From Promethearchaeota archaeon (GTDB lineage Archaea > Asgardarchaeota > Lokiarchaeia > Sigyniarchaeales > SOKP01), in the NCBI GenBank assembly GCA_011364925.1, contig RDOA01000025.1, positions 1 to 49,261 on the forward strand: 49,261 nt of DNA. Direction: 5' to 3'. A program made the position numbers and the translations under genes. The notes under the pieces were generated by a model, which did not search any database, was not told where the DNA came from, and saw only the letters and a program-made list of their open reading frames with translations. Below are positions 3,234 through 16,448 of the stretch, in pieces (position 1 is the stretch's first letter; each line of letters starts with the position of its first letter).

Positions 3234-3770
3234 ATGGAAAGCGTAAATCAACTGTGGATAAAGAGAATTTATGAAAAGTGTAGCGGATGCAGAAGATGTG
3301 AGATTGCGTGCTCTCTGTATCACGAAGGGAAAATTTGGCCGGAAGCTTCAAGGGTAAGAGTATTTATGTTTGTTCCGGGAGTCGAAATACCTCATCTCTG
3401 CTTTCAATGCGACGATTATCCGTGTGTTCAAGCATGTCCCGAGGAAGCTCTGTCAGTAGACGATCGTACAGGAGCTGTAATCACTGACAAGTCAAAATGT
3501 ACCGCATGTGGAACGTGTATTGATGCCTGTCCTGGAAGAGTACCCCATCTCCATCCTCAACATGATTATATCGTAATTTGTGATTTATGTGGTGGAAATC
3601 CGAAATGTACAGTTAGTTGTCAAGAAGGTAAGTGGGATTCTTTGGTTCTCTTAGAAGGTCAAGATGTTGAATCGGAAAAAGCACCGGCAAACACACCTAA
3701 GAATCTCACCTACGAAACTGCAAAAGCAGTATTGGGTGAAAAAACGACGGAAGAGGTGTATGAATGGTGA
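3234..3770 (+). CDS. polyferredoxin small subunit of tungsten oxidoreductase (WOR5-S-like, DmsB-like)
   Basis: CSGCRRCEIAC, CFQCDDYPCVQACP, CTACGTCIDACP, CDLCGGNPKC; overlaps the AOR start by 7 nt. Confidence 0.92.
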   Translation: MESVNQLWIKRIYEKCSGCRRCEIACSLYHEGKIWPEASRVRVFMFVPGVEIPHLCFQCDDYPCVQACPEEALSVDDRTGAVITDKSKCTACGTCIDACPGRVPHLHPQHDYIVICDLCGGNPKCTVSCQEGKWDSLVLLEGQDVESEKAPANTPKNLTYETAKAVLGEKTTEEVYEW

Positions 3771-5641
3771 ATGGTTATGCAGGAAAATTTCTAGAAATTG
3801 ATCTAACAAATAAAAAAGTTAGTAAAATCACCATTCCAGATAGAATTCTCCAGGATTACATCGGAGGAAGAGGATTAGGAGTAAAAATTTTATGGGATAG
3901 ACTTGGAAATAGGTGGGAGTCAATTGATCCTTTAGGTCCTGAAAATATTTTACTTATGCTTACTGGTCCTTTAACGGGCTATTTCCTTGGTGCTAGAATT
4001 TGCGTAACTGGAAAATCCCCTCAGGGTAATGGAATTATAGGTTCAACAGTCGCTGGAGAATTTGGCGTGGAGTTGAAATGTGCCGGTTATGACGGAATTA
4101 TTTTTACGGGAAAAGCTGAAAAGCCGAGTTACGTATTCATTTGTGACGATAAAGTAGAAATTAAAGACGCTTCACACATATGGGGAAAAACTAGCAGAGA
4201 ATCTATGCGTTATCTTGTAAAAGATTCGATTAGCGACATCAAAAAGATCCATCCTAATTTTGGGGAGTTTAAGGAACCTTCCGTTCTCTATATAGGTCCT
4301 GCTGGAGAAAATAAGTCCCGGGTTGCTTCTGTAGAAGCAAAATATGCGCATGCAGCTGGTTACGGAGGATATGGTGGCGTAATGGGCTCGAAAAACTTGA
4401 AAGCTGTAGTAGTAAAAGGTTTTAGATACTTGCCCGATGTAGCTGATCAAGATAAAATGCTCGAACTATCGCAGGAATTTGCAGATAATTGCTTTAGGAT
4501 AGAGTTTTTTAGACGTTGGGGTACGGGATCGGGAGGCTATACATTTGGTCATGACTCAAGTTCAGAACCCGTTAGAAATTGGCAGGAAGAATGGCATAAT
4601 GAGAAAAGTTATAAAGGCGAAGAATTCGATAAATTTTGGGTAAAGAAGTACTGGGGAGATTACGGTTGTCCCGTTACGTGCCTAAAATTAGCGGTGTTAA
4701 GAGAGGGAAAGTACGCTGGAGCAGTCTGTGACAACCCCGATTACGAGCTTGAAGCGTTTCTGGGGGCTAATTTAGGCATTTTTTCACCAGAGCAGAACAT
4801 TTATCTCTCCTATATCATAGAAGAATTAGGATTTTGTGGTATTCAAGGTGGGGCAATTTTGGGATTTGCTGGAGAATTATTCCAAAGAGGTATCCTTTCA
4901 AAAGAAGATTTAGGAGGAATAAACCTTGAATGGGGAAATGTTGATGCGTTTGCCGAACTAGCTAGAAAAATTGCGTTTAGAGAAGGTATAGGAGATATAT
5001 TAGCAGAAGGAATATATCGAGCGGCTTTGAAATTGGAACAAATGAAAAAAACAGAAGTTCTCAAATACGCTATTCATCTTAAAGGCATGGCAATAGGAGC
5101 TCATGGCCTTAAAAGCGGCAAAGACATGGTTACGCAAACTCCGATTGGATATAGCGTGTCAGTTCAAGCAGGAGACCACACATCGTCAGCAGCTCTTCCT
5201 ATTGATGGAGATGGAAGCGAATTATACTCAATTCTCAGCGATTCTGGAGTGTATTGCTTTTTTACCACTTTTACCCTAGAATTTGATCAAATTGCAAGTT
5301 TCTATCGCGCCGTTACAGGTTGGGAATTACAAAATGAAAGCTGGTTCAACGAAAAAGGGTTAAGAATTCTACAATTACAGAGAACCGTGGCATTGCTTGG
5401 AGGTCCGGACGCGGAGTGGCGATCAAAGCAAGATGATACTTTACCTTCTAGGTTTTGGGAACCTCTCCCCTCGGGACCATATAAAGGAGAATCAATAGAC
5501 AAAATCGAATTCGAGCAATTAAAATCCGAATATTACTTAGCGGTTGGGTGGAACGAAGAAGGTGTACCCTCTTCTGAAATATTGCAAAAATTAGATTTAA
5601 GAGATGTTGAATTAAAACTTAAAAAAGAGGGCTTTTTATAA
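3764..5641 (+). CDS. aor: tungsten aldehyde:ferredoxin oxidoreductase family, WOR5-like large subunit
   Basis: GYAGKFLEIDL, GGRGLG, KSPQGNG, GGYGGVMGSKNLKAV, SSEPVRNWQEE, WGDYGCPVTC, LGGPD, EPLPSGP; SD GAGGTG. Confidence 0.93.
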   Translation: MVNGYAGKFLEIDLTNKKVSKITIPDRILQDYIGGRGLGVKILWDRLGNRWESIDPLGPENILLMLTGPLTGYFLGARICVTGKSPQGNGIIGSTVAGEFGVELKCAGYDGIIFTGKAEKPSYVFICDDKVEIKDASHIWGKTSRESMRYLVKDSISDIKKIHPNFGEFKEPSVLYIGPAGENKSRVASVEAKYAHAAGYGGYGGVMGSKNLKAVVVKGFRYLPDVADQDKMLELSQEFADNCFRIEFFRRWGTGSGGYTFGHDSSSEPVRNWQEEWHNEKSYKGEEFDKFWVKKYWGDYGCPVTCLKLAVLREGKYAGAVCDNPDYELEAFLGANLGIFSPEQNIYLSYIIEELGFCGIQGGAILGFAGELFQRGILSKEDLGGINLEWGNVDAFAELARKIAFREGIGDILAEGIYRAALKLEQMKKTEVLKYAIHLKGMAIGAHGLKSGKDMVTQTPIGYSVSVQAGDHTSSAALPIDGDGSELYSILSDSGVYCFFTTFTLEFDQIASFYRAVTGWELQNESWFNEKGLRILQLQRTVALLGGPDAEWRSKQDDTLPSRFWEPLPSGPYKGESIDKIEFEQLKSEYYLAVGWNEEGVPSSEILQKLDLRDVELKLKKEGFL

Positions 5642-5705: not shown

Positions 5706-6329
5706 TTGTCAAAATGTTCTATGACGGTGTCTATTATCGTGAAGATTTTCTCGAGAGGAATGGCAGGTTTAATAATATTTGTTGGTACTGTTCAATGGTT
5801 AATGATGATCTTAATATCAGAAAGTTTTCAACCCAGCTATAACAGTTCTTTACATTATGTTAGCTCTTTGGGGGTTGGTACGACTGCTCTTGCTTATAAT
5901 CTTTCAATCATAATATTTGGTTTGAGCTTGATCCTATCGTCCATAATCCTCTACAAAGCATTGAGTATCAAATTATTCACTTCGTTATTACTTATTACTG
6001 GAATATTCATAATAGGAGTAGGAGTATTTCCCGAGGATTCAAGGCCTATGCATGGTTACGTCACTGCTTTTGCATTTATTTTTGCAGTTTCACTTCCTAT
6101 TATCTCTTTTAAAATGCTAAAACGCCCCTTTTCCTATATTTCAATTGTAATAGGTTTAATTACTCTCACATTGTTAATATTTTTCTTTCCATACTTGGGA
6201 TTACCCGCAGAATCAACTACCACCATATTAGGATTAGCAAAGGGAACTATGGAGCGGTTAGTTATTTATCCTCTTTTAATTTGGATGATAAGCTTCAGTG
6301 TTTCATTATTGCAACCTAACACGAAGTAA
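5706..6329 (+). CDS. DUF998-family membrane protein; true start probably further downstream (5721, 5739 or 5760)
   Basis: PSYN...HYVSSLG, GVGVFPED..MH, GTMERL; several TM segments. Confidence 0.75.
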   Translation: MSKCSMTVSIIVKIFSRGMAGLIIFVGTVQWLMMILISESFQPSYNSSLHYVSSLGVGTTALAYNLSIIIFGLSLILSSIILYKALSIKLFTSLLLITGIFIIGVGVFPEDSRPMHGYVTAFAFIFAVSLPIISFKMLKRPFSYISIVIGLITLTLLIFFFPYLGLPAESTTTILGLAKGTMERLVIYPLLIWMISFSVSLLQPNTK

Positions 6330-8932: not shown

Positions 8933-9433
8933 CTAATTAATCTTAATTTTACTTAGAATATCCTCAAAATAATGGATATTTCCTTGCTTTAATTCATCTT
9001 TTAAAGCGTTTGCTAGCGAATATCTAAAAGCCCATACCTCTACATTTTTCCCTATTTCTTTTAATTTTTTGACTACAGGGACAAAATCGCCATCTCCAGA
9101 AACTAATACTGCTGTATCATACGCGTTTTCGTAGCCAAGAGAGATAATATCGACCGCGATACCTATGTCAACTTTTTTTTCATCTACTCCTTGTGAAGTA
9201 ATCTTATCAAAACTCGCTTTTATCTCATATCCACTTTTACTACTCAAATCATTATACCATCTCTGCTTCTCTGGGGTTATAGGATATACAATCCCCTCAT
9301 ACAAATAAATAGCTTGCAAATTCCTATTATTAACTAGTAAAATTTTCAATTTTTCATAATCAGCTTTAATATTGAATTTTCTAAAACCCTGGAAAATATT
9401 GCTATTATCAAGAAAAATTACAATTCGATTCAT
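8933..9433 (-). CDS. NYN domain (LabA/DUF88, PIN-like) protein
   Basis: FLDNSN, EKKVDIGIAVD, LVSGDGDFVP acidic motifs. Confidence 0.92.
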   Translation of the reverse strand: MNRIVIFLDNSNIFQGFRKFNIKADYEKLKILLVNNRNLQAIYLYEGIVYPITPEKQRWYNDLSSKSGYEIKASFDKITSQGVDEKKVDIGIAVDIISLGYENAYDTAVLVSGDGDFVPVVKKLKEIGKNVEVWAFRYSLANALKDELKQGNIHYFEDILSKIKIN

Positions 9434-12075: not shown

Positions 12076-12723
12076 CTAATTGATAATTTTTAATTGGTTT
12101 ACCGTTTCAGATCCTTTTACATCGGGATTTTTTCCAAAAATCCAATATTGATATTCTCCTCCTCTTTCTAATATACCCTCGGATATGATGGAGAATCCTG
12201 ATTTTTTTATAAGATTAAGAGTGGTTTTTGGGTTAAAATTGCTCCAAAACATCGGGACTCCAAAAAAATTACTTGTGCCTTCTGATTCTGAAATTCCCGT
12301 ATTAATCATTAGGATGCCACCAGGCTTCAAAATTTTAATAAATTGTTTGAAGATGTCTAAATGTTTATTTTTAGGTACGTGAAAAAGCGCATATACGCTT
12401 ATAATTCCATCGAATGAGTTTTCACTGAATTGTAAATCATTCATATCCATTTTGATGAATTCAGCACTAGGAACATTATCTCGAGCTAAATTTAGCATTT
12501 TACCAGATAAATCGATGCCAGTTACTTTAATCCCTCGTTCTATAAGGAATTTTGCAGTAGGAATCCCAGCACCGCATCCTACATCTAAGATATGAGCGTT
12601 TTCTGGAAGATGAGAAGCAAATTCTTCTAATTCATTATTGAATTTACTTAGATTCCTGTGACTATAATAATCTTCAGCGATTCTATCGTATCCTTGTTCT
12701 ACTAGTCTACTTATAGCATTCAT
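12076..12723 (-). CDS. class I SAM-dependent methyltransferase
   Basis: GYDRIA, ILDVGCGAG, GIDLS, FDGIIS, LKPGG. Confidence 0.92.
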   Translation of the reverse strand: MNAISRLVEQGYDRIAEDYYSHRNLSKFNNELEEFASHLPENAHILDVGCGAGIPTAKFLIERGIKVTGIDLSGKMLNLARDNVPSAEFIKMDMNDLQFSENSFDGIISVYALFHVPKNKHLDIFKQFIKILKPGGILMINTGISESEGTSNFFGVPMFWSNFNPKTTLNLIKKSGFSIISEGILERGGEYQYWIFGKNPDVKGSETVNQLKIIN

Positions 12724-12834: not shown

Positions 12835-13299
12835 TTAACAATGAATATCTTTGATCTGTCCATGATTTTCGATTCTATTATATTTCTTGCTCTTGGATTG
12901 GAAATGTACTATAACCTGAGCGTTTTCAAGCTCTGGCATCGCTTTAATAAGATTCTTATCTCCACATTTAATTGTCTGGAGTACGAGTGGCAAATGATAA
13001 CAAAAGATTTTGTTTCGTAAACCGGTCCAACCAAAACAGAATCCTCCACTAACGTGCATATACAGATGTAGTTCGAATTCACCGTTTTTCTTTTGCCACT
13101 CAGCTAAAACTTCGTCTCTCATGAAACGGGTATATAGACCTGAGATTTGTTCGTAATCGTATTCTGAACCTATCGTAAGGAAAAGATCTCCAGTTGAATC
13201 AGAATGTGTTAATGTGTATTTTCGAGGTAAATCTAACGTGTTTTCAGCTACGGAATCTTTATAAACTACATGCAATTTTTCAGGATTTAGATCGGGCAT
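12835..13299 (-). CDS. STAY-GREEN (SGR) family protein, Mg-dechelatase homolog
   Basis: LNPEKLHV, LPRKYTLTHSDSTGDLFLTIG, MRDEVLAEW, HVSGG, LPLVL...GD, PEL..A.V.VHFQS...YN..E. Confidence 0.92.
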   Translation of the reverse strand: MPDLNPEKLHVVYKDSVAENTLDLPRKYTLTHSDSTGDLFLTIGSEYDYEQISGLYTRFMRDEVLAEWQKKNGEFELHLYMHVSGGFCFGWTGLRNKIFCYHLPLVLQTIKCGDKNLIKAMPELENAQVIVHFQSKSKKYNRIENHGQIKDIHC

Positions 13300-13364
13300 T
13301 TTTATAAATTATTTAGTCCAGAAGAAGTTTAAACCATTTAATTATGAATTATTAAATTATTGAT

Positions 13365-14699
13365 TTAAATTAAATCAATATATTGTTTTATGTTAAATTT
13401 TCGTTTCATTCCATCATAGCTCATATATCTTATTTTCCCAAAGACTTTTCTCTCGCCCCAAGCTCTATCATGAACACCTCCGATAGACCATGCTATTCCA
13501 GCATAGCCATTAGGGTCTCTTCCATCAAGTTCATATTTATCGTTGAGATAAATTGCGTATTCTACAGCCTTTTCAGGAGTCTCTGTCCATTCAAGAATTT
13601 TTTTTGCCCAATACATCCTAAGATAACCATGCATTTTCCCTCGTTTTATCATTTGACGTTGAGCAGTGTTCCATAGATCATCATGAGTTCTAGCTCTCTC
13701 TAATTCCTCCAAAGTATATTTATAGTCTCGTTTATCTTTTAAATGCTGATTCAAAGTCTCTATTGCCCAAGATTGAAAACTGGCAGTCGTATCATAATCA
13801 GGAGAATAAAAGCAGAAGTTATCTGATAATTCTTTACGTACAATTATTTCGTCATAAAACGAACCCTTGAGATTTATAATTCTTTTTGTCTTCGTCGCTT
13901 CTAGAACAACTCTTTGAGAAGAAATTTGTCCAAAATGTAAATATGGAGATAGATCGGAAACAGAATTTAAATTTGGATCGTTTCTTTCCCTAGTATAATT
14001 TCTAAGCTTTTTCTCAACGAATAATTTCAACACACCTCTTGCTTGATCCTCTCCTGGTCTTATCCAATCAAATGTGTATTTTGGATTATCTTCTGAAACG
14101 AAATTTCTTAGTTTTACCCAATTAACTTCGCTAAAGTTTTCTTTCCAAGAGTACGGGTGTTTCTTAATCTCTGGAAATTCAACTAAAAACTCCGCTAATA
14201 ACTTACTTATTTTTGAACGTATAGTATAGGCTGCATACTCTTTTTTATTAGATGCAATCCAACAAGGGACTATATTATGTGTATCTACTTCACTAAATGA
14301 TACGTTTAATTTACTTCTTAACGATTCAATCCAGTTCCTTTTTATTTTTAATGGAGAAAAGTCTGTTATTAACATACCTATTTTGTATTCCTCAATAAAA
14401 TTCGTTAAAACAGTTCTTGGATCTCCCTTTAGTGCCACAAATGTGATATTAAGTTCAATACAATCTTTTTCTATAATTTCTAATCCATCAAGCATAAAAT
14501 CAAAGATTCTTGGTTCCGCACCTAAAAATTCTTGCTGCAAACAAAAAACAACGATAATTGGTTGTTTATGATTTAATGCTAGTTCTTGAGCATAAATTAA
14601 AGCCCAATTATCTCTAATTCTTTGATCTCGACTCATCCAATATAAGATCGGACCACTGATCTTCTTCTCAAGTATTCTTTTGACTCTTCTATAGTCCAT
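13365..14699 (-). CDS. phrB: class II CPD DNA photolyase
   Basis: YWMSRDQRIRDNWAL, LSPYLHFGQIS, ELSDNFC, GKMHGYLRMYWAKKILEW, DGRDPNGYAG, HDRAW, GKIRYM; SD AGGGGA. Confidence 0.96.
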   Translation of the reverse strand: MDYRRVKRILEKKISGPILYWMSRDQRIRDNWALIYAQELALNHKQPIIVVFCLQQEFLGAEPRIFDFMLDGLEIIEKDCIELNITFVALKGDPRTVLTNFIEEYKIGMLITDFSPLKIKRNWIESLRSKLNVSFSEVDTHNIVPCWIASNKKEYAAYTIRSKISKLLAEFLVEFPEIKKHPYSWKENFSEVNWVKLRNFVSEDNPKYTFDWIRPGEDQARGVLKLFVEKKLRNYTRERNDPNLNSVSDLSPYLHFGQISSQRVVLEATKTKRIINLKGSFYDEIIVRKELSDNFCFYSPDYDTTASFQSWAIETLNQHLKDKRDYKYTLEELERARTHDDLWNTAQRQMIKRGKMHGYLRMYWAKKILEWTETPEKAVEYAIYLNDKYELDGRDPNGYAGIAWSIGGVHDRAWGERKVFGKIRYMSYDGMKRKFNIKQYIDLI

Positions 14700-14723
14700 A
14701 ATAAGAAATCCCCTTACACTTTT

Positions 14724-15425
14724 TTATGCTAATGAAAAATCTACGGCTGCTTGTAAATGAATTTTTAAGGTATCGAAAAGAGGAACACTTAAATCTTCGG
14801 ATTTAATTAATATAGGAAGTTCCGTACATCCTAGAATTATCCCTTCTGCTCCATTCTGTTTTAAATTTTCAATTATTTTTAATATTTCTTTCTTAGTCGC
14901 TTCAATGAATTTCCCTTTTGCAAACTCATTGTAAATTGCGTTATTAATGTAGTCTCTTTCATTTTTAGCGGGAGTTAAAGCGTTAATGTCATAAGTCTTC
15001 ATAAGTTTCTCAATATAAAAACTTCCTTCCATCGTGAATTTTGTCCCTAATAAGCCGACATCTTTAATATTCATAGATTTTATAACCTTTGCAGTCTCAT
15101 CAACTACATTAATGAGTGGGATTGTAATCTCCACCTCAATTTTGGGTGCAATTTTGTGCATAGTGTTAGAGCAGATTACGATCGCTTTACTTCCAGCTAA
15201 TTCAAGTTTTTTACATATTATAATCATTGTTTTCAATAGATCATCCCATCTATTTTGTTCCTGCAAGAGCAGAACTTCCGCAAAATTTACAGAATACAAT
15301 AAGATCTCTGCTGAATACCACTCACCGAGCCTATCTTTAACCATTTCGTTAATAATTCTATAATAATCGATTGTATTCTCCCAGCTCATGCCCCCAATTA
15401 AGCCTAACAACTTCAAAGTCATCAA
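14724..15425 (-). CDS. aspartate/glutamate racemase family (RacX/YgeA-like)
   Basis: GLIGGMSWE, ICSNTMH, GLLGTKFTM, ILGCTEL. Confidence 0.93.
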   Translation of the reverse strand: MMTLKLLGLIGGMSWENTIDYYRIINEMVKDRLGEWYSAEILLYSVNFAEVLLLQEQNRWDDLLKTMIIICKKLELAGSKAIVICSNTMHKIAPKIEVEITIPLINVVDETAKVIKSMNIKDVGLLGTKFTMEGSFYIEKLMKTYDINALTPAKNERDYINNAIYNEFAKGKFIEATKKEILKIIENLKQNGAEGIILGCTELPILIKSEDLSVPLFDTLKIHLQAAVDFSLA

Positions 15426-15440
15426 TCCTATATTTCAATC

Positions 15441-15457
15441 AAAATAAAAAAAAAAAA
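15441..15457 (-). terminator. poly-T tract, archaeal terminator-like, after heliorhodopsin
   Basis: T12-A-T4 on the minus strand immediately after the HeR stop. Confidence 0.45.
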
Positions 15458-15458
15458 T

Positions 15459-16271
15459 TTACGCTGGTTGTAATACTCCAGCGAAGACTAACCATGCTAA
15501 AAGAGTTTTAGACCACAAACTAAGTAGAATGTATCCACGCTCTCCGTACAAGTAATCCTTCCACTTTCCTATTTTTTTATACTGTAAAATCATGTTAATA
15601 GGAAACGTATTGAAGAAAAATATATACGATCCAAAGATAGCCCAAACAAACCATGGAATTTCAGAAACATCTCCATTCCCAAAGAGATATAAAAGAATGA
15701 TTACCCAAGGAATAACTCCAGCAAACACTCCAATGTAAAACGCTGTCCACTTCGTTTTCTCAGTTGTTTGGTTGTGAATTTCCATCATCAAACCTAGAAG
15801 ATTCATTACCGTATTGATACAAAATATCAAAATCATACTTGAAAGGTCATAGACTCCAAAAAACCACGCAATCAAAACTATCATTAAGGATGAACTTAAA
15901 GCGTATTCAAACCACCGAAAGTAATTGATCCTTTCTCCCAGTTTTCTATTATAGAAATTGTTCACTTTAGGTAATACGATTAAAAAATGAGCAATAGCTG
16001 AGAGTAATAAGAACATCGCAACTAAAGGACCTATAGGGACTGTTGTTAATTGTTGGTAATCTGGCATGAGACTTGGAGGTATTACCGCATCATTGTAATA
16101 GAGATAAGATGTAGTGATCGGTAACTTAAAATCTCTTATTTCAGGAATTGTATAAGATAAAATCACCATTATGCTCGCTTGTATCAAGTGTAGAAATCCC
16201 ATAATCAGGTTAAAACGTCTTAAATACGAAAAACTGATTTTTGAATCAATTTTTTCATTCATATTTTTCAC
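15459..16271 (-). CDS. heR: heliorhodopsin
   Basis: LRRFNLIMGFLHLIQ, AHF, INYFRWFEYALSSSLM, FPINMILQY...GKW.DYLYGE..YILLSLWSKTLLAW (SxxxK retinal lysine). Start is GTG 16271 or ATG 16262. Confidence 0.96.
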   Translation of the reverse strand: MKNMNEKIDSKISFSYLRRFNLIMGFLHLIQASIMVILSYTIPEIRDFKLPITTSYLYYNDAVIPPSLMPDYQQLTTVPIGPLVAMFLLLSAIAHFLIVLPKVNNFYNRKLGERINYFRWFEYALSSSLMIVLIAWFFGVYDLSSMILIFCINTVMNLLGLMMEIHNQTTEKTKWTAFYIGVFAGVIPWVIILLYLFGNGDVSEIPWFVWAIFGSYIFFFNTFPINMILQYKKIGKWKDYLYGERGYILLSLWSKTLLAWLVFAGVLQPA

Positions 16272-16448
16272 TTTTATGCAAAATTTTTTTTAGGTTTTGT
16301 AATGATTATTCAAAATAAAAATATTTTTAATATAATTTATAAAATACTTAAAGCAAAATTTAAAGATATAAAGTATTCTAGTGAGGATCGATGCGGATTT
16401 GAATTTTATCCCTCTCTTTGAGATTATAAAACTAATTCATATTCATAT

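Follow-up and report, generated by a model that had tools for sequence, protein, structure and literature searches.

A heliorhodopsin, racemase, photolyase and Stay-Green gene cluster in a Lokiarchaeon: a probable light-stress island in compacted form

What would a presumed anaerobic, non-photosynthetic archaeon of the sediment do with a heliorhodopsin (HeR), a DNA photolyase and a homologue of the chlorophyll Mg-dechelatase Stay-Green (SGR), all set side by side? The question is raised by a stretch of 49,261 nucleotides (nt) from contig RDOA01000025.1 (assembly GCA_011364925.1), hereafter the window, which belongs to a Promethearchaeia (Lokiarchaeia) genome and carries four intact minus-strand genes in the order HeR, racemase, class II photolyase and SGR. 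An earlier note, made from the letters of this DNA, had proposed a photoprotection module in a probable Asgard archaeon. We favor, with a probability of roughly 0.6, the reading that the genes make up a co-regulated, compacted light-stress island of a surface-sediment Lokiarchaeon, which would act as a small regulon and not as one obligatory complex. We favor it because the catalytic residues are intact, because linkage of HeR to SGR and of the racemase to the photolyase is found repeatedly, and because the same semi-palindrome lies at the same distance from the TATA box of two promoters.

The arrangement was as the note had described it. The co-oriented genes are separated by 33 nt (HeR-racemase), 24 nt (racemase-photolyase) and 65 nt (photolyase-SGR), and Shine-Dalgarno-like motifs precede the racemase (AGGA) and the photolyase (AAGGGGA). 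The Asgard host was confirmed by a contig of the same genus from a Promethearchaeia archaeon (JAHQWJ010000139.1). HeR, SGR and the photolyase are each single-copy in the genome, and a second, distant racemase (33%) is encoded on another contig. We rejected an assembly artifact because two of the three junctions (SGR-photolyase and racemase-HeR) are spanned by independent contigs from an unrelated marine-sediment study of 2015 and because a sister species shows the same gene order. The sequencing runs matching the window DNA included no RNA run.

Curated family cut-offs, matches to solved structures and catalytic residues also bore out the gene identities that the note had assigned. The HeR scored 307 bits against NF038020 (cut-off, 100) and 320 against PF18761 (cut-off, 26.7) and matched the solved TaHeR (6is6) over its full length (E = 2e-68), with the retinal lysine K255 in transmembrane helix 7, the counterion E122, the RxxEY motif R119-x-x-E122-Y123, H28, H95 and S91 all aligned. 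By family and retinal-site residues it is a heliorhodopsin, and it is predicted to bind retinal. The photolyase scored 611.9 bits against the phr2 model TIGR00591 (cut-off, 550) and 45 against the class I model PRK10674 (cut-off, 506), and it matched the Methanosarcina mazei enzyme (2xry) over its full length (E = 9e-156), to which W343, W364, W371, N386, D392, E284 and W414 align. We take these residues to be the Trp triad and residues of the flavin adenine dinucleotide (FAD) and cyclobutane pyrimidine dimer (CPD) sites. Profile and site residues place the enzyme in the class II CPD type, with light-driven repair as its predicted activity, and an 8-hydroxy-5-deazaflavin (8-HDF) antenna is possible given that cofG, of the 8-HDF route, is present in the genome.

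The SGR scored 166 bits against Staygreen PF12638, above the curated cut-off, and matched an Anaerolineae SGR (7y5y) over its full length (E = 3e-46). It contains the THSD motif with H32 and D34, the catalytic D62 and the R26-D114 pair, and its residues H32, D34, D62, R26, Y28, T29 and D114 bear the same position numbers as the essential residues of AbSGR-h (PMC8531759). By these residues it is a Mg-dechelatase homologue, predicted to remove Mg from chlorophyll a; activity varies widely among SGR homologues (PMC8531759). Proteins of 250 to 300 amino acids (aa) with an N-terminal SGR domain and a C-terminal extension were also seen (P0129, P0139, P0141, P0142 and P0148). The racemase exceeded the cut-off of asp_race TIGR00035 (238 bits), scored 230 against the equivalog PRK10200, below its cut-off of 417, and matched EcL-DER/YgeA (5ell) over its full length (E = 2e-59). 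Its first site reads C-S86-N-T where YgeA has C-T83-N-T, its second catalytic residue C200 corresponds to YgeA C197, and Ser86 is invariant in nine island racemase copies. A classical two-cysteine aspartate racemase (CNT and GCTE) was rejected on the Ser that stands in place of Cys at the first site.

The earlier note had proposed a neighborhood survey in which a lack of recurrence would count against its idea. We counted HeR and SGR as linked when they lay within 10 kb on one contig. They were linked in 14 of 19 genomes of the same genus holding both, kin that are not independent, compared with about 0.6% expected by chance (one HeR per genome of ~3.5 Mb); in two of the five unlinked genomes, the contigs end within island genes. 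Among 351 Asgard genomes drawn evenly, 65 had both genes, and 25 of these had them linked; the linked fraction was 12/17 for this genus, 5/22 for genus g18, 7/12 for family f27, 1/3 for f32, 0/7 for f12 and 0/3 for f10. Family f27 belongs to another class, and the place of the class II enzyme in its island is taken by a class I photolyase, UvdE and DUF1295, which indicates that non-homologous UV-repair genes join the HeR-SGR pair. A random draw of 300 Anaerolineae yielded SGR in 14 genomes, HeR in 45 and both in nine; the pair was linked in seven of these nine, five times as a HeR-then-SGR tandem within 200 nt. Outside Asgard, 41 SGR loci were examined over 8 kb, and 11 of them, including loci of Dehalococcoidales and Bathyarchaeia, had HeR, a class I photolyase or UvdE in that range. 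Elsewhere, the most frequent neighbor of SGR was a major facilitator superfamily (MFS) transporter; DUF2867, AhpC, a CrtI-like oxidoreductase and a CarH-like MerR-B12 regulator were also frequent, and DUF523/1722 and alpha/beta hydrolases recurred. Linked pairs fall in several separate clades of both the HeR and the SGR tree, which are congruent in the clade of this genome. Gene order and orientation within the island vary, and a single fixed integration hot spot was rejected on the finding that the flanks differ between clades. Two closed genomes (G055 and G050; loci L089 and L090) encode HeR and have no SGR.

The racemase has its own recurrent partner. Intact phr2 is present in 14 of 135 family genomes, and in 12 of these 14 loci a racemase orthologue lies within ~6 kb of the class II photolyase. 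It may stand on the upstream or the downstream side, depending on the locus, and DUF523/DUF1722 frequently separate the two genes. Two of three more distant racemase homologues that we looked up stand beside a photolyase or UvdE together with DUF523/1722; the third has no photolyase nearby. Given this recurrent linkage, the racemase is a real member of the island, and we rejected the possibility that it is a one-off intruder. Its membership was anticipated neither by the earlier note nor by published lists of HeR neighbors (PMC11109279). In three family genomes, DPRP, a relative of the FeS-type 6-4 photolyases, lies directly 5' of the class II photolyase (L078:6411-9277, L226 and L235). Collectively, both links, HeR-SGR and racemase-photolyase, reappear in different genera, in different Asgard classes and in Chloroflexota, so the survey upheld a recurring light-associated module. 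The triple of HeR, photolyase and SGR as a stable unit did not hold up, with the intact class II enzyme in so few family genomes.

We considered whether the four genes could be transcribed together. The earlier note had cautioned that a T12 tract after HeR and a TTTAAA before SGR may split the transcripts, and the caution proved sound. A T-rich tract after HeR is kept in 7/7 relatives and in the sister species, and of 340 short gaps between co-directional genes in this genome, only 20 have runs of T7 or longer. The 65-nt stretch ahead of SGR contains BRE-like purines and, 28 nt from the ATG, TTTAAA; both are conserved in 10 relatives, among them relatives with SGR at the head of a divergent unit, and the stretch would be the promoter of SGR itself. 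Given the conserved T tract and this promoter, one four-gene transcript is unlikely here, and we rejected an uninterrupted one for this genome because SGR has its own promoter. The T tract is probably a terminator, which we judged to be leaky because no promoter element was found upstream of the racemase or the photolyase; the photolyase is probably read through from the racemase. A scan for sigma-70 promoters and terminators, a bacterial model unsuited to an archaeon, stayed at chance level.

The two promoters, of HeR and of SGR, have in common the semi-palindrome TTATAAWTTATAA. At the HeR promoter it forms a conserved footprint in eight relatives, with diverging flanks. It was found with up to one mismatch in nine of the 3261 regions upstream of open reading frames (ORFs) in the genome, HeR included, and with up to two mismatches in 72, SGR included. 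Among held-out promoters, it occurred at the same spacing before 5 of 11 aldo-keto reductase (AKR) genes and before a second HeR type, versus 12 of 377 other genes. A weight matrix ranked the two promoters 5th and 7th, or 18th and 1st, of 2753, which is partly circular given that the training sites had been picked with the same consensus, and the held-out counts are to be preferred. We regard the semi-palindrome as a candidate common operator of the HeR and SGR promoters and as a lead of moderate strength. One ORF (G000:C19:6921-7472), Lrp/AsnC-like by eye, has the semi-palindrome with one mismatch before its TATA box and is a candidate regulator of the island.

How did this tight arrangement arise? 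Two relatives (G031 and G682) carry a longer island with HeR, racemase, ATP10-like, AKR, short-chain dehydrogenase (SDR), fasciclin, PNPOx-like and photolyase genes, followed by DUF523/1722, MFS, SGR and methyltransferase genes. Three collinear blocks of the window align to it, interrupted immediately on either side of the photolyase, and this genome contains no close copy of the island's MFS, AKR, ATP10-like, fasciclin or DUF523/1722 genes. We infer from the blocks, the breaks and the skipped genes that two deletions left only co-oriented genes, so that the window would represent a deletion-compacted form of the longer island. By the same kind of comparison, compaction is ongoing in near relatives. 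In the sister species (85 to 88% nucleotide identity), the same four genes occur with a photolyase-SGR gap of 8 nt and a degenerate SGR promoter: the photolyase ORF enters the former promoter (L241:2560-2600), SGR has lost its first few residues, and the promoter remnant abuts the ATG. In a marsh-metagenome contig (~95% like the window), the racemase is missing exactly from the end of the T tract, and HeR abuts the photolyase (joint at 14749-15446). The photolyase was lost, with HeR and SGR kept, in four genomes (G002, G013, G024 and G034), and only its last 36 codons are left inside the island of G014 (L063:2722-2829).

These observations bear on the alternative that the genes are habitat-filtered cargo, each useful in lit surface sediment and co-transferred as an island; they would then be neither jointly regulated nor, in the case of SGR, under the control of light. 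The congruence of the HeR and SGR trees, together with the nesting of this genus's copies among those of another genus, is what co-transfer would give, and cargo would also be consistent with the strongly variable content of the island and with the many genomes that hold the genes apart. However, a shared promoter element at a fixed spacing on non-homologous genes, the repeated tightening to HeR-SGR tandems of <200 nt in unrelated lineages and the operon consolidation in the sister species speak against cargo, and we consider it unlikely. A second alternative is a helper-rhodopsin complex in which HeR would bind the class II photolyase, and possibly SGR, and raise their activity in light. The HeR of Trichococcus flocculiformis (TfHeR) binds a class II CPD photolyase and increases repair ~3-fold (PMC9769723), the photolyase here is of the same class, HeR lies directly before it in the marsh relative, and the two genes are divergent in G336. 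Yet the majority of relatives with HeR are without a class II photolyase (20 of 33 genomes of the genus have HeR and only 4 of 41 have phr2), which suggests that HeR is kept without that partner, and most photolyase loci of the family have no HeR nearby, so that we hold such a complex to be distinctly improbable. The least probable alternative is a feeding module, in which HeR would signal the fresh-detritus layer, SGR, acting alongside hydrolases and the methyltransferase, would draw Mg, phytol or tetrapyrrole carbon from chlorophyll, and only the photolyase would serve photoprotection; the broad specificity of an Anaerolineae homologue that dechelates many chlorophyll derivatives (PMC11006732), the alpha/beta hydrolases beside SGR and the sediment and marsh metagenomes whose runs contain the window DNA would fit it, but the recurrent neighbors of SGR are defense genes (photolyases, UvdE, CrtI-like, CarH-like and AhpC) and not genes of uptake or catabolism, and PAO was not found in the genome.

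The co-regulated light-stress island that we favor could work as follows. On arrival of the cell in lit, photo-oxidative sediment, one transcription factor would open both promoters, that of HeR and that of SGR. The former would yield mostly HeR mRNA, with the leaky T tract adding racemase and photolyase. HeR would sense light using scavenged retinal, the photolyase, with FAD and possibly the 8-HDF antenna, would repair CPD lesions, and SGR would demetallate chlorophyll-type Mg-tetrapyrroles from algal detritus as a first disposal step, a role that fits an MFS exporter as the most frequent SGR neighbor elsewhere. The racemase may clear or make D-amino acids under stress or may be a passenger of the photolyase cassette, which is the weakest step of the proposal.

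Several findings weigh against this reading. Carotenoid oxygenase was not found in the genome, nor was blh in a search whose control was silent, and phytoene synthase (PF00494) had no match with a control that was positive in eight genomes, so retinal must be scavenged; most genomes that have HeR as their only rhodopsin are without a retinal pathway (10.1101/2021.02.01.429150). A search for type-1 rhodopsins had a silent control. Pheophorbide is a strong photosensitizer (10.64898/2026.03.19.712979), so Mg removal alone does not detoxify chlorophyll; PAO (PF08417) was not found with a positive control, and RCCR was not found in a search with a silent control. The handling of photosensitizing tetrapyrroles that the earlier note envisaged is therefore incomplete: the Mg-removal step stands as a prediction, and its product stays phototoxic. 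No light role is apparent for the racemase, the photolyase is the island's least stable component, as its rarity in the family and the G014 remnant attest, and the genes skipped by the deletions are gone from this genome. HeR and SGR are unlinked in 17 of 22 genomes of g18 and in 7/7 of f12, lie 1.3 Mb apart in two single-contig genomes (G349 and G282), and part altogether in family f17, which has SGR without HeR; three sampled Bacillota-type SGRs stand alone. The semi-palindrome is AT-rich, was partly derived from the same promoters, also matches a proteasome beta-like ORF, comes from no more than two or three independent lineages and did not appear in f27.

A bolder version of the favored reading would have a light-controlled regulon in anaerobic Asgard archaea, marked by the semi-palindrome, with HeR as the sensor and SGR as a light-activated output. 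Light defense would then be the native function of the prokaryotic SGR family that gave plants their chlorophyll Mg-dechelatase, and the racemase would have an undescribed role in controlling photodamage. We consider this version doubtful.

The coordinates of the island and its elements are given in Table 1. A gene for an EFR1-family ferredoxin (window:16449-17366) separates HeR from the GNAT gene that is its direct neighbor in relatives; it resembles an insertion that left the HeR promoter intact, and the sister species is without it. On the other side, the spacer at window:11772-12010 is 74 to 80% like the HeR-GNAT spacer of G002 and G034 and may be a moved fragment or a gene remnant. Further downstream are genes for an ATC-hydrolase-like protein (window:8073-8828), an NYN-domain protein (8933-9433), an aldehyde ferredoxin oxidoreductase (3764-5641) and a DUF998 protein (5706-6329), all ordinary as far as checked. 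A membrane protein of 255 aa that belongs to no Pfam family is a repeated neighbor of SGR and HeR in other islands and has an unlinked 50% homologue in this genome (G000:C107:4667-5359).

Table 1. Genes and putative regulatory elements of the island (window coordinates)
Feature	Position	Strand	Remarks
Semi-palindrome (consensus TTATAAWTTATAA), copy 1	16330..16342	-	21 nt before HeR TATA; candidate operator
TATA-like box, HeR promoter	16316..16321	-	conserved columns in relatives; putative function
Heliorhodopsin (HeR)	15459..16271	-	270 aa; real start may instead be the ATG at 16262
T12 tract after HeR	15446..15457	-	probable partial (leaky) archaeal terminator
YgeA/EcL-DER-type racemase of amino acids, independent of pyridoxal phosphate (PLP)	14724..15425	-	233 aa; S86/C200 catalytic pair
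Class II CPD photolyase	13365..14699	-	444 aa; Trp triad W343/W364/W371, N386, E284
Semi-palindrome (consensus TTATAAWTTATAA), copy 2	13342..13354	-	21 nt before SGR TATA; putative function
TATA box TTTAAA of SGR promoter	13328..13333	-	kept in 10 relatives; probably leaderless
Stay-Green (SGR, Mg-dechelatase) homologue	12835..13299	-	154 aa; H32, D34, D62; structural R26, Y28, T29, D114
S-adenosylmethionine (SAM)-dependent methyltransferase	12076..12723	-	after SGR throughout the clade; 111-nt gap; possible fifth member

The physiological role of prokaryotic SGR homologues has been stated to be unknown (PMC8531759), and most heliorhodopsins are without a known output. The island ties both to UV repair in several unrelated lineages and is a clue that orphan "stay-green" enzymes and heliorhodopsins work in light defense, here in a non-photosynthetic sediment archaeon. 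If the favored reading is true, the locus would provide direct genetic evidence that presumed anaerobic Lokiarchaeia sense and counter light at the sediment surface, and it would bear on what the ancestor of the plant dechelatase did. It also offers testable handles in a candidate operator of defined sequence, a pair of predicted transcripts and four proteins that are either soluble or expressible.

How does the island compare with systems already known? Bacteria have light-stress clusters of the CarH/LitR type, from which the present locus differs in having no CarH-type gene in the island and no carotenoid synthesis genes found in the genome; elsewhere in the genome, there are five matches to the B12 part of such regulators (B12-binding_2), in frames of 211 to 242 aa. 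Its photolyase resembles the M. mazei enzyme MmCPDII (2xry) in the region of the Trp triad and in the FAD-proximal Asn and differs in context, with HeR, racemase and SGR as neighbors. The SGR has seven residues at positions identical to those of AbSGR-h from Anaerolineae bacterium SM23_63 (PDB 7y5y; PMC8531759 and PMC11006732), papers that do not describe the genomic neighborhood and regard the physiological role as unknown. The racemase belongs to the same subfamily as YgeA/EcL-DER (5ell) and the broad-specificity RacX racemases (PMC12838360), with one catalytic Cys; it differs in Ser86, which replaces Thr83, and in its linkage to a photolyase.

Among the closest precedents is the operon of TfHeR and a class II CPD photolyase (PMC9769723), in which, as here, HeR is co-oriented with and close to a class II enzyme. 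Here, however, the host is archaeal, a racemase lies between, SGR follows downstream, and the photolyase is dispensable; a conserved T tract lies between the two genes of the pair, and no promoter element was found ahead of the photolyase. Binding in the precedent involves the TfHeR loop residues E97, R162 and K227. Znf-HeR neighborhoods with carotenoid, photolyase and UvdE genes (10.1101/2021.02.01.429150) likewise place HeR among genes of UV repair and photoprotection and draw on a gene pool (DUF523/1722, fasciclin, DUF1295 and DPRP) common with relatives of the window, whereas this locus has no zinc-finger extension, no carotenoid genes found in its genome and an archaeal-type promoter element. 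The term "staygreen" is absent from that paper, and the ten published groups of HeR neighbors include photolyases but neither SGR nor the racemase (PMC11109279). Our literature search, which left most subscription papers outside it, retrieved no paper linking HeR to SGR and no description of a racemase-photolyase link. Every gene here is from a known family, and HeR beside a photolyase or UvdE has already been published; what is new is the association of racemase and photolyase, the history of compaction and the element common to both promoters, which make this locus a real new variant of the light-stress gene cluster.

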